A stretch of 44,311 bases of DNA from an uncultured Alphaproteobacteria bacterium (GTDB lineage: Bacteria > Pseudomonadota > Alphaproteobacteria > Rhizobiales > Xanthobacteraceae). A program made the position numbers and the translations under genes. Under the pieces are notes generated by a model. It saw only the letters and a program-made list of their open reading frames with translations, ran no database searches and was not told where the DNA came from. Where the stretch lies: the NCBI GenBank assembly GCA_965652015.1, contig CBFGVM010000001.1, forward strand, positions 1 to 44,311. The letters are read 5' to 3'. Within the stretch, counting starts at the first letter, position 1. Every line of letters begins with the position of its first letter. Of the stretch, positions 11,140-44,311 are shown one piece after another.

Positions 11140-11156
11140 CGGAGTTCTGGTCTGTG

Positions 11157-20112: not shown

Positions 20113-20141
20113 CAATGCATGGTCCTAACCATGGAACAAAT

Positions 20142-20157
20142 GCGAATTTGTATTCGC
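20142..20157. promoter_or_regulatory. perfect palindrome GCGAAT-N4-ATTCGC in the divergent GNAT-GNAT intergenic region (operator candidate)
   Basis: gcgaat (20142-20147), ttgt, attcgc (20152-20157). It lies in the 160-bp gap between the divergent starts at 20112 (-) and 20273 (+). Confidence 0.3.
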
Positions 20158-20272
20158 TCTGCGGACAAAGACAAGGATCGGGACCGCCGGAATGACGGCG
20201 TTCGAATGCTGGACAATCGCCGGCCGCTCCCCTAGGAGCGAAGCTCTATCGAACACACTCTCGCAGCCGACC

Positions 20273-21490: not shown

Positions 21491-21549
21491 ATGATCGGGC
21501 GGCCCGGTCCACCGGTTCGGCGGTCGGCCTGCCGTCGCCAAACGATAGC

Positions 21550-30200: not shown

Positions 30201-31988
30201 CGTCTGCTCGTCGGCGGTCAATTCGTGCAACAACGACCAGCCGGCAAGCCGATCGAAGAGTTCGCTCACCTCTTCGATGGCTCGGCGAAAAACCGGTTCC
30301 TGTGCCAGCAATTCGCGTCCCATTGCCCACCACTGCTGGCCCATGCCCGAGCAGACGAACACGGGGTTCAACGCGATAGCCGAAGTGCGGCCAGTCGAAG
30401 TGTTGGCGCGGGTTTCGCCCGCAACGAATGCCTGGAGTTGCCCCACGAGCTCGGCGTGATCGTGAGCAACGAGCGCCAGCCGGAATTCGTGATGAGAACG
30501 CTTCACGCCGGCGGAAAAACAGATATCGCGGAGCGACTCGCGCCGCAGGCCGCGCTTGTCTCCGAGCGCGCTCGCATACGAGCGCGCCAGGTCGGATAGC
30601 GCGGATGCGCTACGTGCCGAGAGCGGCAGCATCCACGCAAGATCGTCGCCGACTTCGGCCTGAATTCGCCCGGCCAAGCCGGCATCGGGAGGTGCCTCGA
30701 GGATCGCGTGTCCGTTCGTGCCGCCAAAACCGAAAGAGTTTACGGCAGCGCGCGGCGGGCGGCCGCGCGTTTCGGGCCAGGGCTCCAGTCCCTGTACGAC
30801 CCTCAGCCGCAGGTCATCGAAATCGATTTGTGGATTCGGAGTCTCGAAGTGCAGACTCTTGGGGATTTCGCGGTGCTGCAGGCACAGCGCTGCTTTGATC
30901 AAGCCGGTTATGCCCGCAGCCGCTTCCAGATGACCGATGTTGCTCTTGATCGAGCCGATCACGCAGCGGTCATTGGGGGGGCGCGCCTTACCATAGATTG
31001 CTCCGAGGGCTGCGGCCTCGATCGGGTCGCCCACGGGCGTTCCGGTCCCGTGCGCCTCGACGTACTGAATGCTATCCGGTGCAATATCAGCCAGCCGCAG
31101 GGCATCGGCTACGTTTGCTTCTTGTGCGACCTGGTTCGGAACCGAGATCCCCGCAGTGCGGCCATCCTGATTGACCGCCGTCGCGCGAATCAAGGCATAG
31201 ATGCGATCGCGATCGGCCAATGCGCGCGAGAGTGGCTTGAGAATGACGACGGCAGCACCTTCGCCGCGCACGTAGCCATTGGCGCGCGAATCGAAGCTCT
31301 TGCACCGCCCGTCGGGCGATAGCATCGATGCCTTAGAGAACCCGATGGTGAGTTCGGGCCGCAGCGTCAGGTTGACGCCACCTACGAATGCCAGCTCGCT
31401 CTCGCCGTTCCAGATGCTGCGGCAGCCTAAATGAGTGGCCACGAGCGAGGAAGAACACGCGGTATCGACGGCGAGACTTGGTCCAACAAGGTTGAAGAAA
31501 TAGGAGATGCGGTTGGCTGCGATACATAGCGACGAGCCGACATTGGTGTACGCGTCGATGGCGGCCCGCGCCTCCGGCATGAGCTGGAGAATGCTGTAGT
31601 CCCAGCTGCAGATCCCGATATACACGCTCGCCCGCTTATTCGCCAAAGCGGCCAAGGTGAGGCCGGCATCTTCGACGGCGTGATATGCGACCTCGAGCAA
31701 AAGTCGCTGTTGCGGGTCTGCCGGCTCGGCCTCCCGCGGGGTGATGCCGAAGAATTGGGCATCGAACCGATCGATCTGATCGAGAAAGCCGCCCCAGCGC
31801 GTATTCATTCGTCCCGGCTTGGCGGGATCCGGGTGATACATCGCCGAGAGGTGCCACCGCTCTGCGGGAGCCTCGACAACGGCGTCAACGCCGCCGACGA
31901 GCAAGTTCCATAAATCGTCGGGGCTACGCACGCCACCGGGCAATCGACAACCAATACCAACGATCGCGATCGGTTCGACGCCAGTCAT
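24276..31988 (-). CDS. stand-alone highly reducing type I polyketide synthase, KS-AT-DH-cMT-(psiKR)-ER-KR-ACP; no loading, TE or R domain
   Basis: Part of ORF 24276..32054. I prefer ATG 31988 (MTGVEPIAIVGIGCRLPGG), preceded by GGGAG. 2570 aa. All domain signature motifs are present; see the domain features below. Confidence 0.95.
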   Translation of the reverse strand: MTGVEPIAIVGIGCRLPGGVRSPDDLWNLLVGGVDAVVEAPAERWHLSAMYHPDPAKPGRMNTRWGGFLDQIDRFDAQFFGITPREAEPADPQQRLLLEVAYHAVEDAGLTLAALANKRASVYIGICSWDYSILQLMPEARAAIDAYTNVGSSLCIAANRISYFFNLVGPSLAVDTACSSSLVATHLGCRSIWNGESELAFVGGVNLTLRPELTIGFSKASMLSPDGRCKSFDSRANGYVRGEGAAVVILKPLSRALADRDRIYALIRATAVNQDGRTAGISVPNQVAQEANVADALRLADIAPDSIQYVEAHGTGTPVGDPIEAAALGAIYGKARPPNDRCVIGSIKSNIGHLEAAAGITGLIKAALCLQHREIPKSLHFETPNPQIDFDDLRLRVVQGLEPWPETRGRPPRAAVNSFGFGGTNGHAILEAPPDAGLAGRIQAEVGDDLAWMLPLSARSASALSDLARSYASALGDKRGLRRESLRDICFSAGVKRSHHEFRLALVAHDHAELVGQLQAFVAGETRANTSTGRTSAIALNPVFVCSGMGQQWWAMGRELLAQEPVFRRAIEEVSELFDRLAGWSLLHELTADEQTSRIQQTHIGQPAIFALQVALAALWRSWGVEPAAVLGHSAGEMAASYISGALSLEDAVRVTFHRSRLQYRTAGQGTMLAVGISREEAAKWIARHPHAISLAAVNGAMSITLSGDAAVLGEIDQALNEMDVFSRPLRVDVPYHSPRMEQLEAELLDCLRDIRPRPATTPFFSTVTGTALSGSELDARYWYRNIRQPVLFHDTLGKVIETGHTIFLELGAHPILRNDIAQCLEEKSAGGATLGSLRRDDRERAALLGSLGRLYTLGAQIDWQRLYPAEATAIKLPVYPFQPDSHWRESETTRRIRVGASVHPLLGSRLEAPKPSWSVALDTANLSYLADHRIGDAVIFPGAGYVEMALAAARETLGPVPCVVEDIEFQKFLILDQGAAPLAQVAFDPSTSEFDICTRADASENTWDVHAHGCVRSSSGSAPPSADIAEIRRRCPEAFDHRECIRRFAECGYHYGPTFQGIARLWRNEREVLAEIHSPSCLREHLSDYRLHPAILDACFQTLLAALPTWTNWQALKGETFVPVKIERVRFHAAPPIRAFAHTRVARRTSAELRVDIQILDESGSCVVEVEGLLVRPIGSGAQRRLSTLYEYQWKLDPRLATRQGRDSHHLPSLDALGPLMQQEGEMLRERFNRARYQREFQSLSRATVAAYIVKALREMGWTPASRQGLSTEKLAAQLGMAPQYLRWLRLMLKELTAGEIDSDEEPSRLWKALWDEFPECQAELMLIRLCGEKLAPVLRGEIDPLNLIFPEGTLTTAEALYQDSPSFRLNNLLVQKAVAEIARRLPKGKALRILEVGGGTGGMTSFVLPVLPDHCTEYVFTDISPRFTAHAQHKFAPFPFVQVRTLDIERDPLEQGFDANSFDLIIASDVLHATTDLRNTLDRLKQLLGSGGTLMVVELTRPWLFMTLIFGLLKGWWLFDDAVRADEPCVSQETWRSLLREAGFTGTVCIADCPEAENAQHSVILARGPRAPASPASMSQASDASKSWLLFADAGTADRPSAAAELARKLEQRGDRVIRVMHGADFRHSGARDFSIRCGNPADMKRLVESLDRQAPQLAGIVHLWSLDTGAANTMTNDAFTSSAQLGCVSVMQLVQALAATDDMAVDHIWLVTHAAQPLADGADLLGLAQSPLWGFARVATNEYHNLHCRLVDLATCSSEEIASLAAELDAGTDAEDEIALHGELRYVRRLLPVSPATVQGMGRPVEQSPKRFQIEVARPGILDSLHACSVAHRPLGPTEVEIEVAATGLNFMDLMLAMGMLPAEAAADGSAGKLLGLECAGRVVAVGEQVSDFAVGDEVIAAKSCTLTSHLTVDTQFVAHKPRHLSLEQGATIPLAFLTAFYSLHTLGRMQRGERVLIHAGTGGVGLAAVQLALQAEAIVFATAGSPEKRQLLAALGVPHVMDSRTLAFADEVLKLTDGEGVDIVLNSLSGDAIDKSLSLLRPYGRFIEIGKTDIFKNRKIGMRVLRRNISVFVADLLGALGARAGLARSMLQEVIARVDCGSLRPLPHRVFPAARAADAFRYMAQAKHIGKLIISMRDNEGLKVENGLRSVAVDAEGSYLITGGLGGLGLAVADHLARRGARRLALVGRSAPSPSAQAALESLRQRGVEVLVAAADITDREQTREVITTLRRRMGPLRGIVHAAMVLDDAPIERLTEERMWKAMAPKVIGAWNLHTLTLDAPLDFFVLFSSLASLIGNAGQANYVAGNAFLDALAYYRRARGLPALTINWGVVGEVGHVAGSPETAQRLERLGLKAMPLSETLDALDELLSSDAVQVGVAEVEWKGLLRSMGTRTPARYSTLVSDGGAEKEGTSAGSGVHDLLDADEAALPSLLQAYVQDLLARAMGTSPARIDTEQSLRNLGLDSLIAVEVRNRINVELGMNVPLAKFMQSDSTISALCSYVAERLLEDNRRGGAESSGNGGMPAAQPSPPLSGADAADLLERIDELSEKEVDRHLSELASEGRA
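24465..24692 (-). other. PKS domain: acyl carrier protein
   Basis: LRNLGLDSLIAVEVRNRI; the phosphopantetheine Ser (aa 2492 of the 2592-aa ORF) is encoded at 24579..24581. A 100-aa tail follows, with no thioesterase or reductase domain. Confidence 0.85.
24960..25505 (-). other. PKS domain: ketoreductase (catalytic subdomain, LDD/B-type)
   Basis: YLITGGLGGLGLAVADHLARRGARRLALVGRS, HAAMVLDDAP (LDD motif) and SSLASLIGNAGQANYVAGN. Boundaries are approximate. Confidence 0.85.
25569..26543 (-). other. PKS domain: enoylreductase
   Basis: MDR fold with the NADPH motif VLIHAGTGGVGLAAVQLA and C-terminal AFRYMAQAKHIGKLII. Boundaries are approximate. Confidence 0.85.
27285..28052 (-). other. PKS domain: C-methyltransferase (SAM-dependent)
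   Basis: SAM motif I LRILEVGGGTGGMT (about 27781..27810), DLIIASDVLHAT and GGTLMVVE. It sits between DH and the KR structural subdomain, as in other cMT-containing PKSs. Boundaries are approximate. Confidence 0.8.
28440..29282 (-). other. PKS domain: dehydratase
   Basis: HPLLG...LADHRIGDAVIFPGAGYVEM (His codon 29190..29192), plus the downstream YGPTFQG and LHPAILDACFQ motifs. Boundaries are approximate. Confidence 0.85.
29400..30365 (-). other. PKS domain: acyltransferase
   Basis: FVCSGMGQQW and GHSAGE (Ser codon 30087..30089). The specificity position reads VDVPYHSPRM, which is neither HAFH nor YASH. Boundaries are approximate. Confidence 0.85.
30699..31982 (-). other. PKS domain: ketosynthase
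   Basis: DTACSSSLVATHLGC (active-site Cys codon 31455..31457), VEAHGTGTPVGDP and GSIKSNIGHLEAAAG. Boundaries are approximate. Confidence 0.9.
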
Positions 31989-32141
31989 GGACACTCCCAG
32001 CCTGTAAGTATTCAGAATGCAAGGCTGTAAAGACGGCGTCAACCGCTGAGCCACTGGCGGTAAAAACAGACACCCGTCCGCTGTGCCACGGGTCTAGCGC
32101 GTTCTCTTGCGCGTCCAAAAGTCGCGCAGGAGTGTAGAACC

Positions 32142-32306: not shown

Positions 32307-35300
32307 ATGGGACCGACATGGCGGCGCGCATTGGCCGCTTCTGTTATCATACTCGCTATGGCGGTGGACTCTCTGCTGTTGCCCTCCGCGGCACAGCAGA
32401 GCGACCCGGCGGCGTCGCAGAAGCGTTTTCAGGATCTGTATGAGGCGGGCAATTATTCCGCCGCGCTTGCAGAAGCCCAGAAAGCCGAGGCGGCCGCCAA
32501 GCGTGGCGGCACGAACAACTTTGCTTACGTGTCGGCGCTGAACGACTTGGCCCGCGCTCATCAGGCGCTGGGCCGGTACGGCGAAGCAGCCCAGATGTTC
32601 AAGCAGGTGCTCGCCACGCTGCAGAAGAATCTCCCGCCGGGCGATTCTCGCTTGGCTCAGCCCCTCGCCAACCTCGCCACCGTGTATTTGCTGCAGGCCA
32701 ATCCTCGTGAGGCAGAGAAACTGTACAAGCAGGCGCTCGACATCTCGACCAAGGCGCAGGGCGGACCCAATCAGAGTGTCGCTCTGCTTTTTAGCAATCT
32801 CGCCGACGTCTATAAAGCGCAAGCGCGCTACGAAGAAGCGGAGGCGCAATACAAGCGCGCGCTCGACATGGCGGAGAAGACCGCCGGCCCTAACAGCCTG
32901 TTGGTGGCCCTGATCCTCAACAACCTCACTAAGGTCTACGAGGATCAAAGCCGCTTCAAAGAGGTGGAGGAAGCAGCCAAACGCGCGCTTGCGATTCGCG
33001 AGAAGGCGCTTGGCCCGAACCATCCGGACGTGGCGGCGAGCGTGAACAACCTGGCTCACTTGTATGAGCGGCTTGGCCGCTACACCGAGGCCGACAAGCT
33101 GTTCCAGCGCTCCATCGAGATTTGGGAGAAGGCACTCGGCCCGAAGCATCCGTACCTTGCCACGTCGTTGCTCAATCTTGCGACCGTTTATGCCGACGAG
33201 GAGCGCTTCGAGGAGGCGGAAGCGCTCTACAAGCGCGCCTTGGGCATTCGGGAAGCCGCGTTCGGTCCCAACCACTCCGATGTCGCCACCGTGATCAACA
33301 ACCTCGCGGCGATCTACGAAACTCAGGGTCGCTCTGGCGAATTGGAAAGCTATTCCAAACGGGCGCTTGCCATCGTCACGAAGACGCTTGGCCCGGACAA
33401 TCCCGACACCGCCAAGGTGATCCGCAAGCTCGGCGTGGCCTATGACGCGCAGGGTCGCTACGCCGATGCGGATGCACAGTTCAAGCGCGCGATCGAGATC
33501 GCCACGAAAGCGTTCGGCCCGAATCACCGTTTCATCGCCAACGTGCTGCTGAATCAGGGCCAGTTGTTCGAGCACCAGCGGCGCTACGACGATGCCGAGC
33601 AAGCCTACAAGCGGGCGCTCGCCATCAACGAGAAGGCGCGCGGGCCCAATCATCCGGAGACGGCGAGAACTCTCAATCAGCTCGCGGTACTGAGTATTGC
33701 GCAAGGCAAACCTGCCAATGCCATCGGCTACTCGCGCAAGGCGACGGCGGCGGTACTCGCGCATGCGAATCTCGGCGACGCGGCAGGCCATCAAGGGCGA
33801 GATGGAGAGGGATTGATCGAGCAGCGGTCGGGGTTTTTCGTGAACCACGTCGCAAGTCTGGCTGCCGGCGCGCGGGAGAATGTCGAGCCCGGGGCGACGC
33901 TGGGACGCGAGGCCTTCGAAATTGCGCAATGGGCGAACCAGTCGGCGGCCGCAGCCGCCGTCCAGCAACTGAGCCCGCGCTTCGCCAGCGGCAACGATGC
34001 GCTCGCCGCGCTCGTGCGCCAGGATCAGGATCTGTCGGCCTATCGCCGCGATCGCGAGAAAGCGCTGATCGAAGCATTGGCGAAGCCAGCGGGGCAATCG
34101 GGCCCGGCACAGATCGATACTATTCGCCGGCAAATCGAAGACACCGAGCGCAAGCTGACCGCCACCAAAGCGCGGCTGGAGAAGGAATTCCCCGATTATT
34201 CCACGCTGTCGAACCCAAAGCCGTTGAAAGTAGAGGAGGTGCAGAAGCTGCTCGGGACGCACGAGGCGCTTGTTCTTCCCCTGACGGGTGAGAAGGAGAG
34301 CTATGTCTTCGTCGTCACCCCCGACCGCTTCGACTGGCGCACAATCCCGGCGGGAAGGGATGAGATCGCTGCGAAGGTCACTGCGTTCCGGCGCGGGCTG
34401 GAACTCGATACGATGCAGCAGTTTGACCTCGGCCTCGCGAACGAGCTTTTTACTCTGCTCATCGCGCCGGTCGATGGACTCGTGCGGGACAAGGGGCATC
34501 TGCTGGTGGCGCCGTCGGGCGCGCTGACGGCGCTGCCTTTCCATTTGCTGGTGACGGAAAAGCCGCCGACATCGGCGGGCACGAATCGCACGGCAGCCGA
34601 GGACGCCGCGCGCTACCGCGACGCCGCATGGCTGATCAAGCGCCAAGCCGTCAGCGTTCTGCCCTCGGTGGCCAGCCTGCAGGCGTTGCGGTCGCTGGCG
34701 CAGGCTGGCCAGGGCGGCAAGCCGATGATCGGATTTGGCGATCCGGTCTTCGATCCGCGCGCGACGCCGGGGGGTGAGCAGAAGCGGTCTCGTACCCGGG
34801 GCAAGGCGCGAGCGTACAGCGACTACTGGCGCGGCGCCGGCCTCGATCGCAACATGCTGATGCAAGGGCTGCCGCAGCTTCCGGATACAGCCGATGAGCT
34901 CAGGGCGATTGCGACGTCGCTCGGGGTTTCGTCGACCGATATCGTGCTCGGCCGCGATGCCACCGTGACCGCGGTGAAACGCGCCCCGCTTGCCAACTAC
35001 CGCATCGTCTATTTCGCCACCCACGGGTTGGTGGCCGGCGACGTCAAGGGCCTGGCCGAGCCATCGCTCGCGCTCTCCGTGCCCGCGACGCCGACCGAAG
35101 ACGATGATGGCTTGCTGAAGGCGAGTGAGGTGGCGCAGCTCAAGCTCAATGCCGATTGGGTCGTGCTCTCGGCCTGCAACACCATCGCGGGTGACAAACC
35201 CGGCGCAGAAGCGCTCTCAGGACTCGCGCGTGCGTTTTTCTATGCCGGCGCCCGGGCGTTGCTGGTGTCCCACTGGGCGGTTGCTTCCGACGCGGCCACG

Positions 35301-35471
35301 CGGCTGACGACCTCGGCCTTCGCTACCCTCGCGTCCGATCCGAAGCTCGGGCGCGCCGAAGCGATGCGGCGCGCGATGCTGAGCTTGCTCGATGACAAGT
35401 CGTCGACCGAGAACGCCTATCCCGCAGTTTGGGGTCCATTCGCGGTGGTCGGAGAAGGCAGCCGGCGATGA
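32307..35471 (+). CDS. secreted TPR-repeat protein with C-terminal CHAT (caspase-fold) protease domain
   Basis: I prefer ATG 32307 (GGAG 6 nt upstream; [31 protein letters not shown] signal peptide). There are about ten 42-aa TPR modules (..[33 protein letters not shown]..). The CHAT dyad is intact: [10 protein letters not shown] (His codon 35022..35024) and VVLSACNT (Cys codon 35175..35177). Confidence 0.9.
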
Positions 35472-35495
35472 CGGGAATTCCGCGTCATCGCCGGC
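35461..35495. terminator. 13-bp perfect inverted repeat between convergent genes (bidirectional terminator candidate)
   Basis: gccggcgatgacg (35461-35473), ggaattccg, cgtcatcgccggc (35483-35495). The left arm overlaps the CHAT stop codon (35469-35471). It is followed by ttgtcagctcttatt. The OMP stop codon is at 35509. Confidence 0.5.
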
Positions 35496-35508
35496 TTGTC
35501 AGCTCTTA

Positions 35509-36480
35509 TTAAAAGAGGTCGATGCCCAAACCAACGCGGAAGGTGTGGAAGGACTCACGCAGACCGATGCTCACCTGGCCGGACGGCGTAGAGAGGCAGG
35601 CCGTGCCGCCAGAGCTAGAGCAAGTGTTGGTCAGCCCGAAGGTCTTCGTATAGCTGCCAAAGTCGGTGTACCGGTATTCGGCTCTGGCCTTCACGCCGGT
35701 CCAAATCTCAGCTTCCCAACCCGCGCCAACCGTGCTGCCGACCCGCGTGTCGTTCCAGCTCACCGTGGTCCCTGCCGTCGCGAACGAGGTCGCGGACGAG
35801 CCCGCGCAGGCGGAGACCGAGGGCGTGGAGACGGGCGACGCGCATTGGAAAAGCGTTCCCGTGTATGAGAACGCGCCGCTGATCTCGGCAAACGCGACGC
35901 CGCCCGTCACGTATGCCAGGTTCCAGGGGTTTACGAGCCAGCCGATGCGGCCGCGGATCGACGAGTCCGACTTCTGCTTGACCGAGCCGGAGAACTGGTC
36001 GGTTCGCACATAGGTGGTGGCACTGGGGAACTGGGCGGAGCTCGGAACAGCAATCACGGCCGCGGATGACTGAGGCAAAGAGGTCCCAGCGTTTTTCCAG
36101 GACCAGTCGCCCTCCAGGCCGACGACCCAGCCGCCTATCTGCACGCGGTAGCCGACGAACGGACCGATGGTGTAGGAGGTCTTGTTTCCGCTGAACGAGA
36201 ACGGCGTCTCGAAGCAGTTGCTGTTGAAGGTGCTGCCGGATGGGCAGATAAAGGAACCCGGATCGACGAAGCTGTTGTTCACCGAGCTGGCGCCGTTCGA
36301 GCCGCCGACCTGCCCGCCATTCCAATTGGCGGTCCGAGAAGGTGCCTGCTGTTGCGGCGCAGGCCGTTCGACCACCCGTTCTCTTTTCGGCCTGGCCGGA
36401 ATTTCGGCCGCGTTGGCCGGCTGCAGGATGGCCACTGCGGACAGCGACAGCAAGCTCACGCCGGCGACTAGTAGTCTCAT
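35509..36480 (-). CDS. outer-membrane beta-barrel protein (Omp25/porin-family-like)
   Basis: I prefer ATG 36480 (MRLLVAGVSLLSLSAVAILQPANA/AE). It shows alternating-hydrophobic beta-strand patterning and Gly/Ser/Thr-rich loops. The C-terminus FRVGLGIDLF ends in Phe, the OMP sorting signature. Confidence 0.75.
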   Translation of the reverse strand: MRLLVAGVSLLSLSAVAILQPANAAEIPARPKRERVVERPAPQQQAPSRTANWNGGQVGGSNGASSVNNSFVDPGSFICPSGSTFNSNCFETPFSFSGNKTSYTIGPFVGYRVQIGGWVVGLEGDWSWKNAGTSLPQSSAAVIAVPSSAQFPSATTYVRTDQFSGSVKQKSDSSIRGRIGWLVNPWNLAYVTGGVAFAEISGAFSYTGTLFQCASPVSTPSVSACAGSSATSFATAGTTVSWNDTRVGSTVGAGWEAEIWTGVKARAEYRYTDFGSYTKTFGLTNTCSSSGGTACLSTPSGQVSIGLRESFHTFRVGLGIDLF

Positions 36481-36609
36481 GACACGCCCCCGTTGGTTTT
36501 CAATATCCCCGCTCAACACCTTAGGCGAATACTCCCGGGAATCAATTTCTGAAATCATCGGTAGATTAAGTTTCGGTCATGTGTGGCCCGAGCGTCACAC
36601 TATCTCGTG

Positions 36610-38757
36610 CTAACTCGACCATTCCGGGTCACTAATCCGATCATTGGATGGGTGGTAGCGGGCGAACACAACTTTAGCCGCCTGTTGCAGCATCCCGCCG
36701 CCGATGGCGCTGAGGTGGGTAAGGCCCGCCTCCAGCATACCCTGGTCGAGCGCCTTGCGTGCGGCCGCGAACTCGGCGAGCCCAGGGTCATCCGCTGGCA
36801 CCGAGGCATAGATTGAGCGCGCCCCTGCAAAGCCCTTGAGATCGACATCGTCGATTCGAAGCAGAACGTTGTTTCCCAGCACGCCTGTCTTCGCCGATTG
36901 CATGATCATTTCCGCAGTGGAAGCGGCAATCAGTAATGGAAGGCCATAGAGATCCGGCACTTTTTCGAGGCGAAACGTCTCGTTGACCGCCGGGCCGATA
37001 ATCGTGAAGTTGCTGCGGTGCGCCGCGCCGAGGTCGCCGACATAGACCTTGCCTGAGCACACGACCGCGCGCGCAGCCAGACGGCTCTTGTCCGACAGTT
37101 GGGCGGAATTCACGGTCTTGATGATTTCCTGCGCGGCCGCCAGCGCCTTGATGGCGTGGTCCGGCTCATCGGAAAGCCCGTTCCAGAACGCCAGGACTGC
37201 ATCCCCGAGGAACTTATCGCTGCAGCCCTCGTGCTGGTCGATGACCGACTGCATCAACGTGAAGTACCGGTTGGCCACTCCAACAATTTCCGACGCGGTA
37301 AGATCGGGCCTGTTCGAGAAGGAAGTAAATCCCACGATATCAGCCAACAGAATCGAGACTTCTCGCTCTTGACCCTCGCCCTGATCGGCGAATCCGCTGC
37401 GCGCCAACGTCACTAGCCGCGCCGGCGGCAGGTAACGCCCTGCGGTGCGGAAGAGCCTCCTGAACAAGGCGCGGTGGCGGACCGATCGAACGCCGAGAAT
37501 GGTTCCGTATGCGATAATGGTGACTAGGATTGGGTATCCCATCGGCAGCCACAGATCCGCAAATGCAAACGCGGCAGCACTGAACGAGCAGCCGACAAAC
37601 GTTGGCCCCACAAGTCCGAAAGCGATCGCCCGCGACAGCTGCACCAGGACGAGAGAGCCCGGTGAAACGTCGCGTTCGCCCAGGGCAAGGGCGCTCTCAT
37701 CGCGAAAGGCCAGCATCGCGAAAAGAAAGGCCAAGCAGGCACCCGCGACGAGTCGCAGCCATGGCGGCGCCAGAGTTACCCGCTGTTCGCTGGCCGCGGA
37801 TTGGATCGCCGCGATCTGCAGCAGCACTCCTGGGACTTGCTCGACCCGCGAGCGTTCGAACAAGCCGCGTTGCGGCGCACAGCGCTCGCTCGACGGAGCG
37901 TGCTCGGCCCGACTCAGAAACCGCGCCGGCCCGCGGTGCTCGTCTTCGCCGACCACCGCGGTCCCCACGACCACGATCCGCCCTGCGACCGCGTTTCGAA
38001 CCTGATCGGCGCCATCCTTCGATGCGAGGCAAGCCAGCAACGTCTCCAGGCTGTACGTGGGTGTATCGGTTAGCGGGCCAGCCGGGGCGATCAAAATGCG
38101 TTCGCCGGCGGCCGCTTGGCGCACGCCCCATCCGGCGCCAAGGGCGGCAAAGCCCAAGGCAATGCGCCCATCCGGAAGACGAACGAGAGGAGCGGTGCTT
38201 CGCACCCTTCCATCCGACTCGACCTGGAGGTCGAGCACGCCGACCCGCGATGGTCCCACCGCCTCGAGGAAAGCCGCTGCAGGTGGAACGCTGGGGAACC
38301 GCGCCAGAACAATCCTATCGCGTCCGCGTTGCAGAACGTCGATTAGGCTGCGATCGTAGCCGGGCAAAGTGAACGAGCCGACTTTGAAATCCGCACCGGC
38401 ATACGCAAACACCAGGTCGAAGGCGACCCGGCGCGCTCCGGCATCGAGCAGCCCGTCGATCAGACGAGCCCAAATCGGTTGGAAGAGCGCTCGTGGGAGC
38501 GCGGCGAGCTCGGAGCTTGCGAGCGACGCATCGTCGACGGCGACGAGGACGATCGGTGCGGCGGGAAGATGCCGCCGCCAAGGCTCGGATGTCCTCAGTG
38601 TGAGGTCGTAAAGCAGCCCGTTCGGGCCGCCGAGCGCTGGGAAACCACCCTTATAGTCGCTGACATAACCGGCGAGTCCGCCTGCCACCACGCACAGAGC
38701 CGTGATCAGGCTTACGAGGGGTCTCCAGTTTCGAATGCTCCAGTCGCCGAGATCCAC
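36610..38757 (-). CDS. CHASE2 sensor domain + TM + class III adenylate/guanylate cyclase
   Basis: 715 aa with a GTG start. It has an N-terminal TM, then a CHASE2-like periplasmic region (PIVLVAVDDASL...ALFQPIWARLIDGLLDAGARRVAFDLVF). TM helices follow, then the cyclase core VSILLADIVGFTSFS...DKFLGDAVLAFW...FTIIGPAVNETFRLE with metal Asp residues and the Asn/Arg pair present. Confidence 0.9.
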   Translation of the reverse strand: MDLGDWSIRNWRPLVSLITALCVVAGGLAGYVSDYKGGFPALGGPNGLLYDLTLRTSEPWRRHLPAAPIVLVAVDDASLASSELAALPRALFQPIWARLIDGLLDAGARRVAFDLVFAYAGADFKVGSFTLPGYDRSLIDVLQRGRDRIVLARFPSVPPAAAFLEAVGPSRVGVLDLQVESDGRVRSTAPLVRLPDGRIALGFAALGAGWGVRQAAAGERILIAPAGPLTDTPTYSLETLLACLASKDGADQVRNAVAGRIVVVGTAVVGEDEHRGPARFLSRAEHAPSSERCAPQRGLFERSRVEQVPGVLLQIAAIQSAASEQRVTLAPPWLRLVAGACLAFLFAMLAFRDESALALGERDVSPGSLVLVQLSRAIAFGLVGPTFVGCSFSAAAFAFADLWLPMGYPILVTIIAYGTILGVRSVRHRALFRRLFRTAGRYLPPARLVTLARSGFADQGEGQEREVSILLADIVGFTSFSNRPDLTASEIVGVANRYFTLMQSVIDQHEGCSDKFLGDAVLAFWNGLSDEPDHAIKALAAAQEIIKTVNSAQLSDKSRLAARAVVCSGKVYVGDLGAAHRSNFTIIGPAVNETFRLEKVPDLYGLPLLIAASTAEMIMQSAKTGVLGNNVLLRIDDVDLKGFAGARSIYASVPADDPGLAEFAAARKALDQGMLEAGLTHLSAIGGGMLQQAAKVVFARYHPSNDRISDPEWSS

Positions 38758-38796
38758 GAGGTCGACCTAGTTCGCGACGCCGTCGGCCGCCGGTGG

Positions 38797-40290
38797 TCAG
38801 CGTATTCCGTAGCGCTCGAATTCGTCGGCGATGTTGGACTGGATGAGTTTCGCAGCTGCAATGTCACCGTTGCCTGCGACGCTGTTCCCGATCCGCAACT
38901 TGGCTATTCCGCGTCCATAGAGCGCCGACGCATGTTTCGGGTTGATGCGCAGCGCTGCGTCGTAGTCCGCAATCGCCCTGCTCGCCTGCCCCATCTTCAG
39001 GTTAACGAAGCCGCGACTGTCGAGAGCGTCGACGTAACTCGGGCGCAGCGCCAACGCGCTGTCGCAATCTTTCAGTGCCGACTGCACCTCCCCGATCATG
39101 GCGTTCGCCCAGCACCGGTTGTTCAGTGCTTCGGCGTCCTTGGGATTGAGCCGAATAACGGCGTCGAAATCCTTGACGGCACTGGCGAAGTCCTCGTGTT
39201 GGGCATAGAGCTGACCGCGCTTATAGTAGGTGGCGACATCATTGGGGTTGCGCCGAATCTTGTCGTCGAGCTCTTTGATCGCGGGGTCGTCGATGCGCGC
39301 AACCGGGGAGGGCGCAGGTGTCAGCTTTGCGATCTGCTCACGCGCCCGGTCGGCATGACGCCCGGTAGGATACCTCAAAAGGAAATCCTCCCATGCCTTT
39401 TTGGTCCCGGTGCGTTCCGCGGATTGGTAGGCGGCCCGCGCGTCGGCCTCCAGATCGGGCGGCGGCAGCGGCACCGCTGTCTTCTTCTCCGGCTCGACGG
39501 CGGTCGAAGTGGATGCCGATGACGGCCGTCCAGACGATGTGAACGAGATTACCTCAACGAGCGAGGAGGAGAACCACGGGACCTGCTCGCCCTGGGATGC
39601 CCGCGAAACGCCGATCAGCGTGCGGTTGAAGGCCTCCTCGATCCTGCCCGTACCTCGAATCTCTTTGATCAATTCGCTCACGAAGACCTGCCGATCGCCG
39701 TCCCTGACCACGGCGCCGGGGGCGGCCGCGTACATCACGACCGTGCCCTTCGGCACGCTGACCGGGGCCAGCCCACCGGCGACGGAGCGGAAGCGGCGCT
39801 CGAATGGGTTTCTCCGCGAAGCGTCGAGAATGGCAATCTTGACGCGGGCGCCCCTGGTGTTCATCTCGGCGAGGACCGAATCGAGACTGTATCCGTCGCG
39901 GCGCACGTCAGGTTCAGACCAGATCTGCGCATTGACCGGGATCATGTAGGTCTGCCGATCGGACTGAATGCCATAGCCGCTGAAAAAAAAGAGCGCCGTC
40001 GACCCGGGCTTGATCTTGCCGTAGAAGCGGTCGAGCGTCGCGCGCATTGCTTCTTTGGTGAGATTCTCGCTGGTGTCGACCTCGAATCCGTGTCGCCGCA
40101 ATTCCTCAGCCAAGGCGCGGGCGTTGTTGACCGGGTCTTTCAGCGCCGCTTCCGCGTCTGGATAGGCAGCATTGCCGATGACCACCGCGACCCGTGCTTC
40201 GTTTTGCTGTGCACAAACCGGGTGAATGCTGGTCCCGGCAAGGAACGTGAAGAGCACCGGAACAATAAGGCGAGAGGTCGAGTGCGCCAT
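38797..40290 (-). CDS. secreted peptidase-C14 (caspase)-like domain with mutated catalytic dyad, fused to C-terminal TPR repeats (predicted pseudo-protease)
   Basis: I prefer ATG 40290 (MAHSTSRLIVPVLFTFLAGTSIHPVCAQQ). The caspase-fold core is RVAVVIGNAAYPD...ALFFFSGYGIQSD...KIAILDASRRNPF. Tyr (codon 39973..39975) sits where the catalytic His belongs, and Ser (39817..39819) where the catalytic Cys belongs. The C-terminus has about 4 TPRs (YYKRGQLYAQHEDFASAVKDFDAVIRLNP...). Confidence 0.85.
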   Translation of the reverse strand: MAHSTSRLIVPVLFTFLAGTSIHPVCAQQNEARVAVVIGNAAYPDAEAALKDPVNNARALAEELRRHGFEVDTSENLTKEAMRATLDRFYGKIKPGSTALFFFSGYGIQSDRQTYMIPVNAQIWSEPDVRRDGYSLDSVLAEMNTRGARVKIAILDASRRNPFERRFRSVAGGLAPVSVPKGTVVMYAAAPGAVVRDGDRQVFVSELIKEIRGTGRIEEAFNRTLIGVSRASQGEQVPWFSSSLVEVISFTSSGRPSSASTSTAVEPEKKTAVPLPPPDLEADARAAYQSAERTGTKKAWEDFLLRYPTGRHADRAREQIAKLTPAPSPVARIDDPAIKELDDKIRRNPNDVATYYKRGQLYAQHEDFASAVKDFDAVIRLNPKDAEALNNRCWANAMIGEVQSALKDCDSALALRPSYVDALDSRGFVNLKMGQASRAIADYDAALRINPKHASALYGRGIAKLRIGNSVAGNGDIAAAKLIQSNIADEFERYGIR

Positions 40291-40871
40291 GGCGTGTGTC
40301 CTGGTCTTACGCGGAGCCGGTTCGCAAGCCGCGATCAACCGCCTGTGCCAGGGGCGTTCGATCCGGCGCGCTTGCTACAATCGCACGGGGCGAGTTCGCG
40401 CGCATCGCGGTTCTCGCCAGCAGCGTGCAAGCCGCTGATCTCCATCAAGAAGTGCGGCAAAGCTTAATGGTTCAGCCGCGTTCGGGCAATTGTCCCAGGT
40501 CACACTGTCGCGGATTTGTATGACAAGACCGCGTGCGACGCTCGCGCGGCTTGCCACTCCCGGGCGATCGATTGCCCATCGTCTGGTGGCGGGCTGGCGC
40601 AGCCATCTCGCGACGCGCTCGGGTGGGCCAACGCGTCGCGGCTCGGCGCACCTTTGCCTGTATTACGATGTCGCGCCTCAACCTCCGCCGACTCCCGCGA
40701 GTGGCGGGCAGAGAACGGAGAGGGAACGCGACGCGAATCGCGCTTTTTGTGACCTAGATCACGGTAACTTGGGTATATGGGGTATAGGGTTCTCACATCC
40801 GGTTCGGCTCGTCCGGTACCTCGACTTAAACGGGAAGCGGGCCGAGTGCGCCTAAGAAGAGGGAGACAAGA

Positions 40872-41507
40872 ATGTCCGCGCATCACAAGACGCATAAGCT
40901 TAATCTAGTCTGCATGATCCTGGCCGTTGGCCTTGCCTTGCCCTCGGGACTCGGTGTGGCCCTCGCCGCAGAGGAACGCTCGGCGGATGACATCATCAAG
41001 GCGTTAAAGCCCCAGAGAATCACCCGCGGCCTCACGACGTCCCCGGCCGATGCAGCCCGCAACGCGCAGGAGACGAAGTTCGTAAACAGCTTGCGCAACC
41101 GGCCGACACGTTCCCTGACGTTCACCGAGCGGGAGCAGATCACATCGATCGCTAAGAAGCGGCCGAGCATCGATCTCGAAGTGAACTTCGATTACAATTC
41201 GGACAACATCGGCTCAAAGGCCGCTCCGCAGGTCACCGCTCTCGGCGACGCCCTGGCGAGTCCCGACTTGAAGGGCAGCACTTTCATTCTTGCCGGCCAC
41301 ACCGACGCCAAAGGCAGCGAAACCTACAATCAGGGACTGTCCGAGCGCCGTGCCGAGGCGGTCAAGCGGTTCCTCGCGGAAAAATATGGAATCGAGGCCA
41401 GCAACCTGGTGACCGTCGGCTACGGCAAGACCCAGCTGAAGAATCCAACTGGACCGTTCGCGAGCGAAAATCGCCGGGTCCAGGTCATCAATGCCGCCGA
41501 CAAGTAG
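40872..41507 (+). CDS. OmpA-family peptidoglycan-binding protein (secreted)
   Basis: 211 aa with RBS GGGAG and signal peptide ...LGVALA/AEE. It carries an OmpA C-terminal domain (NFDYNSDNI...FILAGHTDAKGSETYNQGLSERRAEAVKRFL...VGYGKTQL). Confidence 0.85.
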   Translation: MSAHHKTHKLNLVCMILAVGLALPSGLGVALAAEERSADDIIKALKPQRITRGLTTSPADAARNAQETKFVNSLRNRPTRSLTFTEREQITSIAKKRPSIDLEVNFDYNSDNIGSKAAPQVTALGDALASPDLKGSTFILAGHTDAKGSETYNQGLSERRAEAVKRFLAEKYGIEASNLVTVGYGKTQLKNPTGPFASENRRVQVINAADK

Positions 41508-41603
41508 GCGGCTCGCCAGGCGGCGGCTCAGCGAATGAACCGTACGCCTGGCAACCCCGTCTAATTAACAAGGAATGGCGGGTTTCACCTCGGGAGATCA
41601 ACT

Positions 41604-42308
41604 ATGGAACCCCGGTCCACCGAATATCGCAGGTGCAGAGGAACGGCCTCGAGCGTTGTGGGATCGGTGGCGGCCATGCTGCTGCTCGCGGCCGTCGACG
41701 GGACGGCTGCACCTGCGTTGGCACAGCAAGCCACAGCGGATGTCGCCTATGTGGAGGACGTGAACGGTCGCGTGGTCGCGTTCGCTCAGGGTAAGCCAAT
41801 TCTGCTCAACCCTCTTGATACCATCAGCGATCGCACGCGGCTGGATCTGCAGGCAAACAGCGAATTGCGCATCTGTCACTATCCGACGCGCCAGTTTCTC
41901 ACGTTGAAGGGACCCTTGACCGCCTCGATTTCCCGGGACGGGGTTACGGCTGACAATAACAAGACTGCCGTTGCCGCAACGGGGCCGTGCGTCGCGCCCG
42001 TGGTGTCGACCGTCCAAGGCGGCCTGATTTCGCGCGGCGCCGGCACCGCCGTGAAGAGCGTTTCTCTGCAACCGAATATCAGGGTCGTCAATCGCGGCGC
42101 ACAGCCGATCCGCCAGGCTGTATTGTGGGACGGCGATGCCAGAAACATTCTGATGCGCTTGGAGCGAGACGCGGCGCGGCCGACGCTCCAGGACGGCCAG
42201 TTCTATGTTCTGGTCGTCGAGCGCGGCGATGGCAGCGAGTTCAAGATGACGCTCCAGGCAAGGGCGGATACAACAGGCGACGATCCGGTCATCGTCGTGG
42301 TTCCGTAA
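41604..42308 (+). CDS. secreted protein of unknown function; the N-terminal domain is paralogous to 5707..6126, with about 95 extra C-terminal residues
   Basis: 234 aa with GGGAG 7 nt before the ATG and signal-like segment VAAMLLLAAVDGTAAPALAQQ. See the alignment noted for 5707..6126. Confidence 0.7.
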   Translation: MEPRSTEYRRCRGTASSVVGSVAAMLLLAAVDGTAAPALAQQATADVAYVEDVNGRVVAFAQGKPILLNPLDTISDRTRLDLQANSELRICHYPTRQFLTLKGPLTASISRDGVTADNNKTAVAATGPCVAPVVSTVQGGLISRGAGTAVKSVSLQPNIRVVNRGAQPIRQAVLWDGDARNILMRLERDAARPTLQDGQFYVLVVERGDGSEFKMTLQARADTTGDDPVIVVVP

Positions 42309-42417
42309 ACGGGTTGGCGCCTCGCACACTCGGTCACTTGGGCGGGTCCGCCCGTAGATTGTTGGACCTTACCTCCAATGGCATAGGTAGCTATTGGGGG
42401 GAGAGAAAGGGAATGTC

Positions 42418-44229
42418 ATGTGGCGACATTGGCTCGGCATCCTCGCGGCCGTCTTGCTGATATCTGAAAGCGCCTTTGCGCAGAGCCGACTTGCACTTGT
42501 CATCGGAAATTCGAACTACCAGAGCGCGGTACGGCTAGCGAATCCGCTGAACGATGCGAAAGCTGTTGCCGAGGCTCTCGGCGCCGCTGGATTCGAAGTG
42601 ACGACGGCATCGGACCTCAGCCAGGCGGAGATGCGCCGCACTGTTCGCGATTTTTCGGCCCGCATCGCGGAAAAAGGCCCCGATGCGACCGCCCTCGTCT
42701 TCTACGCCGGCCATGGCGTGCAGGTCGACGGTGAGAACTTTCTGATCCCGGTCGATGCACGCATTCAACGCGAGTCGGACGTCGCGATCGAAGCGCTGCG
42801 CCTCGCCGACATTGTGAAGGCGCTCGAGACGGTTCAGAGCCGAACGCGAATTGTCATGCTTGATGCGTGCCGCAACAATCCTTTCTCGAGCGTCGGCGCA
42901 AGCGGACGGGGTCTGGCCATTGTTGACGCCCCCACAGGGTCGATTGTCGGCTATTCGACCGCCCCGGGCACCGAGGCCGAGGACGGCACGGGGCAAAATA
43001 GTCCGTATACTTCGGCGCTCCTGAAGGTCATCCGGGAACCGGGTCTTCCAATCGAGCAGGCGTTAAAGCGCGTGCGGCTGCTGGTACATGAAGCGACCGA
43101 CGGCCGGCAGACACCATGGGAAAGCTCATCCCTCATCAGCGACTTCGCATTTTACCCCGACGGCACGCCGACGAGCGCTAGCCCACCGTTGCCTCAAGTC
43201 GCACAACGGGATGCGCGTCCGGGAGACGTACAGACGCGGGATGCACAGCCGCGCGATACGCAGTCGCGGGAGGGGCAGTCGCGGGAGAGGCAGTCGCGGG
43301 ATGGCGAGTCGCGGACAACCCCTCGAAGTGTCGCATGGCGGGAACAGATCCGAAGCCGCCCGCAACCGCGCCAAGCCTATGACGTCGTCGTCATGGAGGA
43401 TTCCGTCGATGCCTACGAAGAATTCCTTCTTCTCTATCCGTACGATCCGCTTGCCGAACGAATCCGTTACCTGCTGAGCCTACGCTCACAAGCGCTCGCC
43501 TGGCGCTACGCGGTTCTGGCCAATACTCCGGATTCGTATAGTTACTACCTGAACAGCTATCCCGGCGGCTATTACGCCGCTCAGGCGATGCGGCTGCGGG
43601 AACAACCGCGGATACGGCCGGTGGACTCGGTGATGGCGCCTCGCGTCATCGAGCCGCCGCGGGCGCTCCGAGTAAGCTTGCCTTCGTCGCAGGGGGGCGA
43701 CTCGAAAGGGGGCAACTCACCAAGCGGCGGGAAACAAGGCATGCCTCCTGGAGGGTCGGCAACCACGGGCTTGCCGCCGAAGACCGATCAAAAGACAGGG
43801 AACAAGACCGACCAGAAGATGGGAGAGCGGACTGATCAGAAGAAGACCGATCAGAAGTTGGGAGACAAAACCGATCATAAGTTGGGAGACAAAACCGATC
43901 ATAAGTTGGGAGACAAAACTGATCAGAAGACCGGAGAGAAGATAGATCGGAAGACTCGAGAGAAGATTGATCGCAAGATCGCAGAGAAGACTGACCACAA
44001 GATAGATCGACGGTCTGCTCGTGCGACCACTACCGGCGTAAAAACGGCCGTCGAAAAGTTCTCGAAGTCCGAGAGCCGCCGCAACTCCTTTGCAAGTGCG
44101 CCGCAGGCGGCAAAAGCCAGCGCCTTCAAGAACTCCGGGTCATCGTTCTCCCGCTCCATGTCGCAGTCCTCCTTCCGCTCCTCGTCTGGTGGGGGCGGCG
44201 GTGGCGGCCACGGGGGTGGAGTCGGCTGA
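42418..44229 (+). CDS. secreted peptidase-C14 (caspase) family protein with intact dyad and a repeat-rich low-complexity C-terminal tail
   Basis: I prefer ATG 42418 (RBS GAGAGAAAGGGA; MWRHWLGILAAVLLISESAFAQ). Core: RLALVIGNSNYQS...ALVFYAGHGVQVDGENFLIPVDA (His codon 42712..42714) and RIVMLDACRNNPF (Cys codon 42868..42870). Pentapeptide and octapeptide repeat arrays and a Gly run follow. Confidence 0.85.
   Translation: MWRHWLGILAAVLLISESAFAQSRLALVIGNSNYQSAVRLANPLNDAKAVAEALGAAGFEVTTASDLSQAEMRRTVRDFSARIAEKGPDATALVFYAGHGVQVDGENFLIPVDARIQRESDVAIEALRLADIVKALETVQSRTRIVMLDACRNNPFSSVGASGRGLAIVDAPTGSIVGYSTAPGTEAEDGTGQNSPYTSALLKVIREPGLPIEQALKRVRLLVHEATDGRQTPWESSSLISDFAFYPDGTPTSASPPLPQVAQRDARPGDVQTRDAQPRDTQSREGQSRERQSRDGESRTTPRSVAWREQIRSRPQPRQAYDVVVMEDSVDAYEEFLLLYPYDPLAERIRYLLSLRSQALAWRYAVLANTPDSYSYYLNSYPGGYYAAQAMRLREQPRIRPVDSVMAPRVIEPPRALRVSLPSSQGGDSKGGNSPSGGKQGMPPGGSATTGLPPKTDQKTGNKTDQKMGERTDQKKTDQKLGDKTDHKLGDKTDHKLGDKTDQKTGEKIDRKTREKIDRKIAEKTDHKIDRRSARATTTGVKTAVEKFSKSESRRNSFASAPQAAKASAFKNSGSSFSRSMSQSSFRSSSGGGGGGGHGGGVG
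43231..43314 (+). repeat. 15-bp in-frame tandem repeat (about 5.5 copies) encoding Q-[STP]-R-[DE]-x pentapeptides
   Basis: cagacgcgggatgca / cagccgcgcgatacg / cagtcgcgggagggg / cagtcgcgggagagg / cagtcgcgggatggc / gagtcgcgg; protein QTRDAQPRDTQSREGQSRERQSRDGESR. Confidence 0.7.
43780..44010 (+). repeat. 24-bp in-frame tandem repeat (about 9.5 copies) encoding K-T-D-[QH]-K-x-G-[DEN] octapeptides
   Basis: Units start at 43780, 43804, (short unit 43828), 43843, 43867, 43891, 43915, 43939, 43963 and 43987. The units at 43867-43890 and 43891-43914 are identical (aaaaccgatcataagttgggagac). Protein: KTDQKTGNKTDQKMGERTDQKKTDQKLGDKTDHKLGDKTDHKLGDKTDQKTGEKIDRKTREKIDRKIAEKTDHKIDR. Confidence 0.8.
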
Positions 44230-44311
44230 GGCGGCGGTGGCGTTGGCGGCGGTGGTGGCGGTGTCGGTGGTCGCCGCTGAGTGTGCGGCATCGCATTGCA
44301 CAGTTCCTGAG

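Follow-up and report, generated by a model that had tools for sequence, protein, structure and literature searches.

The DNA analysed here is a window of 44,311 nucleotides (contig CBFGVM010000001.1 of assembly GCA_965652015.1, from an uncultured Alphaproteobacteria bacterium of Xanthobacteraceae lineage), and the subject of this study is an island of seven genes in its region 32307-44229, built around an adenylate cyclase with a CHASE2 sensor domain. All seven open reading frames (ORFs) that an earlier note on this DNA had placed here, with their coordinates and strands, were found, and Pfam agreed with that note on the domain make-up of the TPR-CHAT protein, the beta-barrel outer-membrane protein (OMP), the CHASE2-cyclase, the C14-TPR protein, the OmpA-like protein and the C14 caspase (Table 1). 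The divergent 580-bp intergenic region and the convergence of the TPR-CHAT and OMP genes described there are likewise present.

Table 1. Features of the window that enter the analysis; core and accessory give the standing proposed for each gene within the module.
Feature	Position	Strand	Basis and remarks
Short-form paralogue of the small protein, 139 aa (N-domain, QGGLVTRG and 6 residues)	5707-6126	-	51% identity over 110 aa, E 2e-37; 35 kb from the long form
Two perfect CRP-type boxes	6236-6251, 6267-6282		In the gap separating the short paralogue from a divergent 84-aa Cys-rich secreted ORF
TPR-CHAT protein, 1054 aa, predicted exported	32307-35471	+	Pfam TPR_12 1e-91, CHAT PF12770 8e-54; accessory
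Outer-membrane beta-barrel protein, 323 aa	35509-36480	-	Pfam OMP_b-brl 2e-9; downstream of the cyclase, same strand; accessory
CHASE2-sensor class III adenylate cyclase, 715 aa	36610-38757	-	Pfam CHASE2 1e-20, Guanylate_cyc 1e-11; core
Pseudo-caspase (C14 p20, Tyr/Ser) with C-terminal TPRs, predicted exported	38797-40290	-	Pfam C14 3e-31 and TPR; core
CRP-type palindrome TGTGACCTAGATCACG, 1 mismatch, likely cAMP receptor protein (CRP) site of the plus-strand operon	40748-40763		About 110-125 bp before the OmpA-like start
OmpA-like peptidoglycan-binding protein, 211 aa, predicted exported	40872-41507	+	Pfam OmpA 5e-18; core
Small orphan protein, long form, 234 aa, predicted exported	41604-42308	+	Homologues, structure model; core
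L-I-S-R-G linker codons, predicted cleavage or docking site (P4-P1')	42024-42038	+	Translation
Live caspase, paracaspase-like C14, His/Cys, predicted exported	42418-44229	+	PF00656 E 8.6e-44, 150 bits against a cut-off of 21.4

The proteins of the island look exported, as the earlier note had claimed. In six of them the N-terminus has the n-h-c form and closes with an AXA-type site (SAA↓QQ, ANA↓AE, VCA↓QQ, ALA↓AE, ALA↓QQ and AFA↓QS), and the cyclase carries transmembrane (TM) segments; these calls come from our own hydropathy and rule-based reading of the N-termini, not from a trained predictor. The beta-barrel protein, whose signal peptide ends in ANA↓AE, contains 6 Cys. By Pfam and hydropathy the cyclase is laid out as a TM segment, a periplasmic CHASE2 domain, a TM region and a cytoplasmic cyclase domain; the hydropathy scan gives one N-terminal TM segment and one after CHASE2 at about residues 329-352, and more hydrophobic stretches, to about residue 440, were read by eye. 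It has the metal ligands D472 and D518, the substrate pair K514 and T584, and the transition-state residues N591 and R595, and 12 relatives show no change at any of these positions. In class III (IIIb) cyclases a Lys/Thr substrate pair goes with ATP. As the Lys514/Thr584 pair points to ATP, cyclic AMP (cAMP) is the likely product, and the second-messenger cyclase with an extracytoplasmic sensor that had been claimed is well founded, with all class III residues kept and an adenylate-type pair. The cyclase family counts 295 proteins, and the CHASE2-cyclase architecture was present in every one among the matches listed. Orthology to the rhizobial CyaK/CyaD was considered and set aside, because tblastn on plasmids matched the cyclase domain only, at about 30% identity.

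The distinction drawn previously between a dead and a live caspase is borne out by the dyads, Tyr/Ser (SGYG and DASR motifs) in one protein and His/Cys (AGHG and DACR) in the other. The gene for the dead caspase lies 39 bp upstream of the cyclase gene on the same strand. Tyr/Ser occurs in 35 of its 42 relatives and His/Cys in none; TPR_1, TPR_11 and related matches cover residues ~350-490 in the numbering of the 513-aa ORF (~334-474 from the start at 40290), and Pfam finds no further domain beyond C14 and TPR, so that the dyad is replaced and a p10 region is absent, as in pseudo-orthocaspases. The live caspase, in which His/Cys is kept in 20/20 relatives, consists of the C14 domain, a helical middle part that is conserved and a low-complexity repeat tail that varies, conservation being limited to residues about 6-404. 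The solved structure that matches it best by sequence is the MALT1 paracaspase (E 4e-17 over 172 residues). In the alignment it has D, D and D at the equivalents of the acidic S1-pocket residues of MALT1, D365, D462 and E500. The live caspase thus keeps the acidic S1 pocket that marks Arg/Lys specificity in meta-, para- and orthocaspases. The repeat tail noted earlier is present as arrays at 43230-43314 and 43779-44003; across 43230-44270 there are 15/30-bp Q/R/D/E-rich repeats and 24-bp repeats coding for KTDQKLGD-like octapeptides, and a GGC/GGT (Gly) run extends beyond the stop codon. The TPR-CHAT protein has ATHG and SACN motifs, i.e., a His/Cys dyad that is found in 14/14 relatives, and its start codon and ribosome-binding site are conserved as well. 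Distant homologues of its gene on plasmids (28-40% identity) stand by themselves among unrelated genes. SMb20495 was dropped as a TPR-CHAT candidate, Sinorhizobium meliloti being absent among the TPR-CHAT matches listed.

Between the OmpA-like protein and the live caspase is encoded a small orphan protein made up of a signal peptide, an N-terminal beta-sandwich with two Cys, a disordered linker and a C-terminal beta-sandwich. Pfam gave no family even at E<=10, for the protein and 23 members of its family, and NCBIfam gave no match. The protein has 419 homologues, all from metagenomes or metagenome-assembled genomes (MAGs) and none with a Pfam domain, and a profile search of 1.84 billion representatives grouped the family into 181 clusters at 50% identity. 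The earlier note had suggested surveying this family across Proteobacteria; it is not so widespread, with 9 loci in 185,579 species genomes, all of them Xanthobacteraceae, Alphaproteobacteria or Pseudomonadota MAGs, and by these searches it is confined to soil Xanthobacteraceae-like genomes. C91 and C129 are invariant in the family, and because of these two Cys and the signal peptides a periplasmic location fits. AlphaFold2 models reached a mean predicted local distance difference test score (pLDDT) of 74 for the whole protein and 83 for the N-domain alone. Foldseek searches with the full two-domain model returned generic Ig-like matches only, none at E<=0.001; the N-domain found as its best PDB match 5ix9 (TM-score 0.80 by target and 0.60 by query, root-mean-square deviation 1.4 A over 71 columns), with a probability of 1.0 but an E-value of 0.023 and 13% identity. 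This structure is the periplasmic retention module of a LapA-like adhesin, which the periplasmic Cys protease LapG frees under the control of cyclic di-GMP (bioRxiv 10.1101/198937). The modelled likeness to a LapA-type retention module is a lead, not proof. Homology to FecR was rejected, since Pfam was silent at E<=10 for 23 members and hhalign against a Ruegeria FecR protein gave a probability of 0.3%; any FecR relation is a positional analogy.

The linker is the part of this protein that bears most directly on the caspases. Residues 138-147 have pLDDT values <50, yet are among the best-conserved stretches of the family. The five residues that directly follow a QGG landmark, present in 279 members, form the motif [LIV]-V-[ST]-R-G, with L/I/V at P4 in 252, V at P3 in 220, S/T at P2 in 225, R at P1 in 272 and G at P1' in 217, and LISRG is the sole strict match to it among the 6,229 residues of the window proteins. 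MALT1 requires Arg at P1 and its optimal P4-P1 sequence is Leu-Val-Ser-Arg (PMC3304489). Since the linker matches the MALT1 optimum and the live caspase encoded directly downstream keeps a MALT1-type Arg pocket, the small protein is a strong candidate for the substrate of that enzyme. The OmpA-like protein (64-97% identity among loci) has a conserved N-terminal extension in which the alignment reveals two R-x-T-R-[GS]-L repeats, here RITRGLT and RPTRSLT (40970-41170, residues about 33-100); these are possible further Arg-specific cleavage or docking sites.

The family comes in two lengths, long forms of about 230 aa and short forms of about 140 aa, and the short forms stop a median of six residues past the Arg (92/119 at five or six). 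The two lengths keep different company: on the same strand a long form is followed by the cyclase (24) or a live C14 gene (16), a short form by a dead C14-TPR gene (10), and crossed pairings were 0. A short form looks like the product expected from cleavage of a long one, and because short forms resemble this product and pair with the dead caspase, the pattern suggests a dead caspase that recognises the Arg-bearing tail but leaves it uncut. The window itself contains a short form, and the gene just downstream of it on the minus strand (379-5682) encodes a bacterial alpha-2-macroglobulin of 1767 aa with a GCSEQ thioester motif; here a periplasmic protease trap adjoins a family that is elsewhere linked to caspases. 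The macroglobulin was rejected as a conserved partner for the short paralogue, the adjacency being lost in related contigs (L013, L101-L105).

The co-conservation of the genes elsewhere, on which the earlier note's interpretation depended, holds in related loci. A scan of metagenomes with the cyclase alignment yielded 80 loci at 31-97% identity, a sample that is lineage-restricted and redundant; the 31% outlier (L086) was excluded from the counts, and tblastn detected no partner gene beside this distant cyclase. Among the 31 loci with at least 2.5 kb upstream of the cyclase, a pseudo-caspase-TPR gene lies within 4.5 kb in 27, a small-family gene is near in 27 and an OmpA-like gene in 25. Of 61 loci, 56 have either the pseudo-caspase-TPR gene (35) or the small gene (21) directly upstream of the cyclase, and the small gene stands about 25 bp from the cyclase in 21-24 loci. 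Downstream of the cyclase, the beta-barrel gene occurs in 9 of the 18 loci with enough flank and the TPR-CHAT gene in 7 of 14. The seven genes read previously as one unit are therefore a co-conserved cluster but of unequal standing: the core predicted from these counts is the cyclase, the dead caspase-TPR protein, the small protein and the OmpA-like protein, and the OMP and TPR-CHAT, because they are present in about half of the loci, are accessory.

Gene order varies more than gene content. There are at least four arrangements: the divergent layout of the window; OmpA-small-pseudocaspase-cyclase-OMP on a single strand; pseudocaspase-OmpA-small-cyclase; and pseudocaspase-small-cyclase. The retention of the same genes through rearrangement argues for function. 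The complete seven-gene island recurs in L001, L008 and L010, three of the nine loci of the small family found in species genomes. Across these nine loci, an OmpA-like gene precedes the small gene in 9/9, and a live-type C14 gene follows it in 8 and a pseudo-caspase in 1 (L012). An extra small-family gene lies between the pseudo-caspase-TPR gene and the cyclase in L008 (6654-7259), and also in L024 and L028, beyond the copy in the OmpA-small-C14 triad.

A regulatory element accompanies these genes. With at most one mismatch, 4 CRP-type palindromes were found in the window against 0.46 expected from shuffles; the fourth, TGTGACGTCGATCTCA (1 mismatch, 18479-18494), lies within a FAD monooxygenase ORF and is probably a chance match. 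A perfect TGTGA-N6-TCACA stands about 80-135 bp upstream of the OmpA start in 10/10 related loci checked, with fixed half-sites and a variable spacer, and the nearest relatives of the window have a one-mismatch box at the identical position. About 20 bp downstream of the box there is a conserved TGTGTAACCT-like element, which could be an extended -10. A box precedes each OmpA-led operon examined in these and further loci; 305 kb of sequence contain 21 perfect boxes where base composition would give roughly 0.1, and 19 of the 21 stand before a small-family operon. The metagenome loci (474 kb) have 17 perfect boxes, of which 13 precede an OmpA gene. Taken together, nearly all loci have the box, at about 70-135 bp from the OmpA-small-caspase operon. 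The double box at the short paralogue recurs in L013, and a single perfect box is found upstream of short paralogues in L014-L016. Where the genes stand on one strand (L031, L034, L036, L038, L043 and L092), the box precedes OmpA-small-pseudocaspase-cyclase. Because this CRP-type box is conserved upstream of it, the OmpA-small-caspase operon is probably a transcriptional output of cAMP. A box upstream of TPR-CHAT was discarded as a conserved feature, being present only in L001 (282-297, perfect, about 130-165 bp upstream) and missing from L010 and the window; TGTT-N8-AACA, the Clr box of S. meliloti, has zero matches in the window; and consensus scans for promoters and terminators stayed at or below the shuffled expectation and were uninformative.

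Other genes near the short paralogues also concern cyclic nucleotides. In the window, 7171-9153 (plus strand) encodes a cyclic-nucleotide-binding domain fused to a Na/sulfate-type transporter, and L013, L014 and L101-L103 have more cyclic-nucleotide-binding proteins near their short paralogues (some stand-alone, of 164-175 aa, and one fused to an ABC transporter). OmpA-like and C14 or TPR-C14 genes lie there as well, and the whole looks like a cyclic-nucleotide island. An HTH_Crp_2 protein is encoded 7 kb from the short paralogue in L016. In L013 and L101-L103 an 84-aa ORF occupies the divergent position that the ORF across the double box (6461-6715, plus strand) has in the window.

From the gene linkage, the CRP box, the linker motif, the Arg pocket and the pairing of forms with partners, all computed directly, we tentatively read the locus as a conserved envelope signalling module of soil Xanthobacteraceae around the CHASE2 adenylate cyclase, run as a specific switch; we give this reading a probability of about 0.4. 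That cleavage and binding take place is inferred, as are the sign of their regulatory effect, the regulator involved and the signal from outside. In outline, the exported partners (the OmpA-like protein, the small protein and the caspase-fold pair) would control the periplasmic CHASE2 domain as YfiR and YfiB control YfiN. The currency of the switch would be the small protein, with its near-invariant [LIV]-V-[ST]-R-G linker site, positioned or sequestered by the peptidoglycan-bound OmpA-like protein. The live paracaspase-like C14 would cut the long form after Arg, leaving an N-domain with an LVSR-type tail that is shaped like the encoded short form, and the dead caspase-TPR protein, encoded beside the cyclase, would bind such a tail without cutting it; binding or sequestration of the small protein would then set the activity of the cyclase. 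Through a CRP-family regulator, cAMP would act on the box overlapping the OmpA-small-caspase promoter and reset the expression of the partners. Because the box precedes the whole set, the cyclase included, where the genes form one operon, the cyclase itself would there be under the box, which would close a feedback circuit. The beta-barrel and TPR-CHAT proteins would be optional, and might serve the entry of the signal or supply a second proteolytic input. The most specific form of this proposal, a periplasmic caspase cascade in which a dedicated co-encoded substrate is cut at LVSR↓G, the dead caspase serves as product receptor and the CHASE2 cyclase is set within a cAMP-CRP loop, we consider unlikely.

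Several observations weigh against the switch. The metagenome loci are interrelated (63-97% identity), so that the counts drawn from them are not independent, and the OmpA-small-live caspase triad occurs without an adjacent cyclase in L002 and L003, the cyclase thus not being strictly needed. Short forms also stand alone, in L014-L016. The agreement of the linker with the MALT1 optimum at P4-P2 may be due to chance, the comparison of the enzymes covering the S1 pocket alone, and in the dead caspase one of the three S1-pocket acid positions reads as Asn; modelled pseudo-orthocaspases retain the acidic pocket (PMC6426788). The 5ix9 match is weak by its E-value, and small beta-sandwiches match readily. 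Export is predicted from hydropathy and rules alone. The window showed no gene of the CRP family, and boxes of the Crp/Fnr type can also be used by regulators that bind other ligands.

The evidence can also be read with the cyclase at the head of a simple output. The CHASE2 cyclase would by itself sense a cue from the envelope or from outside, and cAMP-CRP would switch on a set of periplasmic effectors, i.e., the OmpA-like anchor, the small adaptor, the caspase, TPR-CHAT and, here, the alpha-2-macroglobulin, for envelope remodelling or defence and with no feedback on the cyclase. Such an arrangement, which we rate as possible if somewhat doubtful, would account for the CRP boxes upstream of the OmpA-small-C14 and short-paralogue operons, including those in loci without an adjacent cyclase, for the recurrence of cyclic-nucleotide-binding proteins nearby and for the short paralogue directly upstream of the thioester macroglobulin in the window, although that adjacency is not conserved; moreover, the targets of S. 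meliloti Clr are secreted proteins dispensable for signal perception (PMC5498481). It does not account, however, for the small gene about 25 bp (21-24 loci) or the dead caspase-TPR gene (35) directly upstream of the cyclase, which is the position of a FecR co-sensor, and it leaves the strict pairing of long and short forms with live and dead caspases unexplained. The direction proposed in the earlier note, proteolysis in and cAMP out, would have the exported caspase and CHAT proteins cut an envelope or foreign protein to give a peptide ligand for CHASE2, which would thereby sense damage or non-self, cAMP being purely an output. Two predicted active proteases are indeed present, an OMP gene follows the cyclase in half of the loci, and the signal of the S. 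meliloti CHASE2 cyclases is a protein and needs an outer-membrane protein (PMC7529298). But the CRP box would place the live caspase operon under cAMP, not ahead of it, the caspase that adjoins the cyclase is the dead one, and the OMP and TPR-CHAT are dispensable in half of the loci; as a complete account this direction is improbable, and it captures at best half of the circuit.

A conflict or programmed-death system (anti-phage, anti-predator or fratricidal) with caspase and CHAT effectors, comparable to type III-E CRISPR or STAND/EACC systems, is very improbable. Caspase and CHAT domains are common effectors in such systems (PMC8195603), there is a weak, sub-threshold similarity to an EACC1-type caspase model, and the cyclase domain resembles Pycsar cyclases, as do all class III cyclases; yet the NCBIfam scores are 43-64 bits against a cut-off of 140, the window holds no PADLOC system and no Cas protein, STAND NTPase or nucleic-acid sensor, all components are predicted to be exported, and the distant TPR-CHAT homologues share no context. 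Membership in a defence system was accordingly dropped, PADLOC having returned nothing specific (a generic TPR model and the class III-wide Pycsar likeness). Least credible of all is a chance clustering of unrelated envelope genes: although each genome encodes many exported proteins and metacaspases are abundant in Alphaproteobacteria (PMC3501461), the same genes are kept through at least four arrangements across 63-97% identity, they have a regulatory box in common, and forms and partners pair without exception.

Neither PADLOC nor the literature gave a match to a characterised system. The statement of the earlier note that this gene combination has no characterised function is right to that extent, but there are analogues for its parts (CyaD-NsrA-Clr, FecR-CHASE2, YfiBNR and LapD/LapG). 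In YfiBNR of Pseudomonas aeruginosa, an OmpA/Pal-like protein, a small periplasmic disulfide protein and an inner-membrane cyclase with a periplasmic sensor are co-encoded (PMC2837407, PMC3375315, PMC4655355). The OmpA-like protein of the window has YfiB/YiaD/Pal-like matches in NCBIfam, all below cut-offs, the YfiB model being matched through the OmpA domain at 68 bits against 128, and its N-terminus has no lipobox Cys. The island further differs in having a class III adenylate cyclase with CHASE2 where YfiBNR has a GGDEF enzyme, an all-beta orphan without a YfiR-family match, and caspase-fold proteins that have no counterpart there; the likeness is one of analogy only. The CyaD1/CyaD2/CyaK-NsrA-Clr pathway of S. 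meliloti likewise combines alphaproteobacterial CHASE2 adenylate cyclases with an outer-membrane beta-barrel partner, and its Crp-family regulator Clr has secreted or periplasmic targets, including a TPR protein (PMC5498481, PMC7529298, PMC13001267). Only the cyclase domain is detectably similar, at 27-33% identity, the box is a Clr box there and a classical CRP-type box here, no caspase-fold protein has been described in that pathway, and the OMP of the island is a 323-aa OMP_b-brl protein, not an NsrA-type partner.

The position of the small gene recalls FecR-CHASE2 pairs. A LysM-FecR protein is paired with a CHASE2 kinase (PMC5192318), and genome neighbourhoods show a FecR gene followed by a CHASE2 cyclase in Ruegeria and Shinella; in both settings an exported beta-rich protein is encoded directly upstream of the CHASE2 sensor and a peptidoglycan-binding module is often at hand (LysM there, the separate OmpA-like protein here), with a TPR protein in Shinella, but the small protein lacks FecR homology. 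In the LapD/LapG/LapA system a periplasmic Cys protease coupled to a second messenger severs a flexible stretch that directly follows a small periplasmic beta-sandwich (bioRxiv 10.1101/198937; PMC5550230); LapG, however, has another fold, the messenger is cyclic di-GMP, sensed by LapD, and the protein cut is a giant adhesin secreted by the type 1 route, whereas here the candidate substrate is a free 234-aa Sec-type protein and the adjacent protease a C14 enzyme.

As to the caspases, the live C14 aligns best to MALT1 and keeps its dyad and Arg pocket (PMC3304489), although MALT1 is cytosolic and has death and Ig domains. Pseudo-orthocaspases, TPR-bearing ones included, have been catalogued in Alphaproteobacteria (582 sequences); Tyr/Ser, the dyad of the TPR-bearing dead caspase here, is the commonest replacement in surveys, but the published TPR-bearing variants are mostly Phe/Ser (PMC6426788). 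N-terminal TM or signal segments have been noted in bacterial metacaspases, OmpA occurs in 14 metacaspase operons, and Ruegeria sp. TM1040 encodes a 1619-aa fusion of OmpA (466-564) to C14 (1366-1613), YP_612838.1 (PMC3501461). This is fusion-type support for OmpA-caspase cooperation outside the present clade. Caspase-CHASE2 fusions with a cytoplasmic caspase have also been noted (PMC3501461, PMC8195603). None of the metacaspase and orthocaspase surveys describes a partner, substrate, circuit or module like this one. The TPR-CHAT protein shares TPRs and a CHAT domain with a His/Cys dyad with Csx29 of the type III-E CRISPR 'Craspase'; in contrast to Csx29, which acts in the cytoplasm, it has an N-terminal export signal, its gene is optional in the module, no cas gene (gRAMP/Cas7-11) is found among the window ORFs and PADLOC matched a generic TPR only. 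By these comparisons the module would be a form of periplasmic cyclase control built from known domain families and one orphan family.

Upstream of the island, an unrelated type I polyketide synthase (24276-32054, 2592 aa, KS-AT-DH-MT-ER-KR-ACP) with a class III aminotransferase fusion, two FemAB-like acyltransferases and a FAD monooxygenase make up an adjoining but separate lipid or polyketide cluster (17708-32054). An RND efflux system at 9293-14276 on the minus strand (two membrane-fusion proteins and an AcrB-type pump) shows synteny to the region around the short paralogue in L013 and L104.

Of the many caspase homologues in bacteria, hardly any has a substrate or role that is known, the dead caspase variants in Alphaproteobacteria, which number in the hundreds, are without any function, and the ligands of CHASE2 domains are also a question. 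For these the locus offers a concrete and cheap test, with one protease, one single-Arg candidate substrate, one dead homologue, one cyclase and one box. If the most specific form of the proposal is true, the live caspase would be the first caspase homologue from bacteria for which a cognate substrate is defined and which has a signalling, non-death role in the envelope, and a first function would be assigned to alphaproteobacterial pseudo-orthocaspases. If the proposed switch holds, Arg-specific, LVSR-type recognition by paracaspase-like enzymes would be older than animals and used in envelope signalling, not death, and a proteolytic version would be added to the periplasmic switches that govern second-messenger cyclases. 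If the regulon part alone holds, the locus would define a group of envelope proteins under cAMP control in uncultured bacteria that are abundant in soil.

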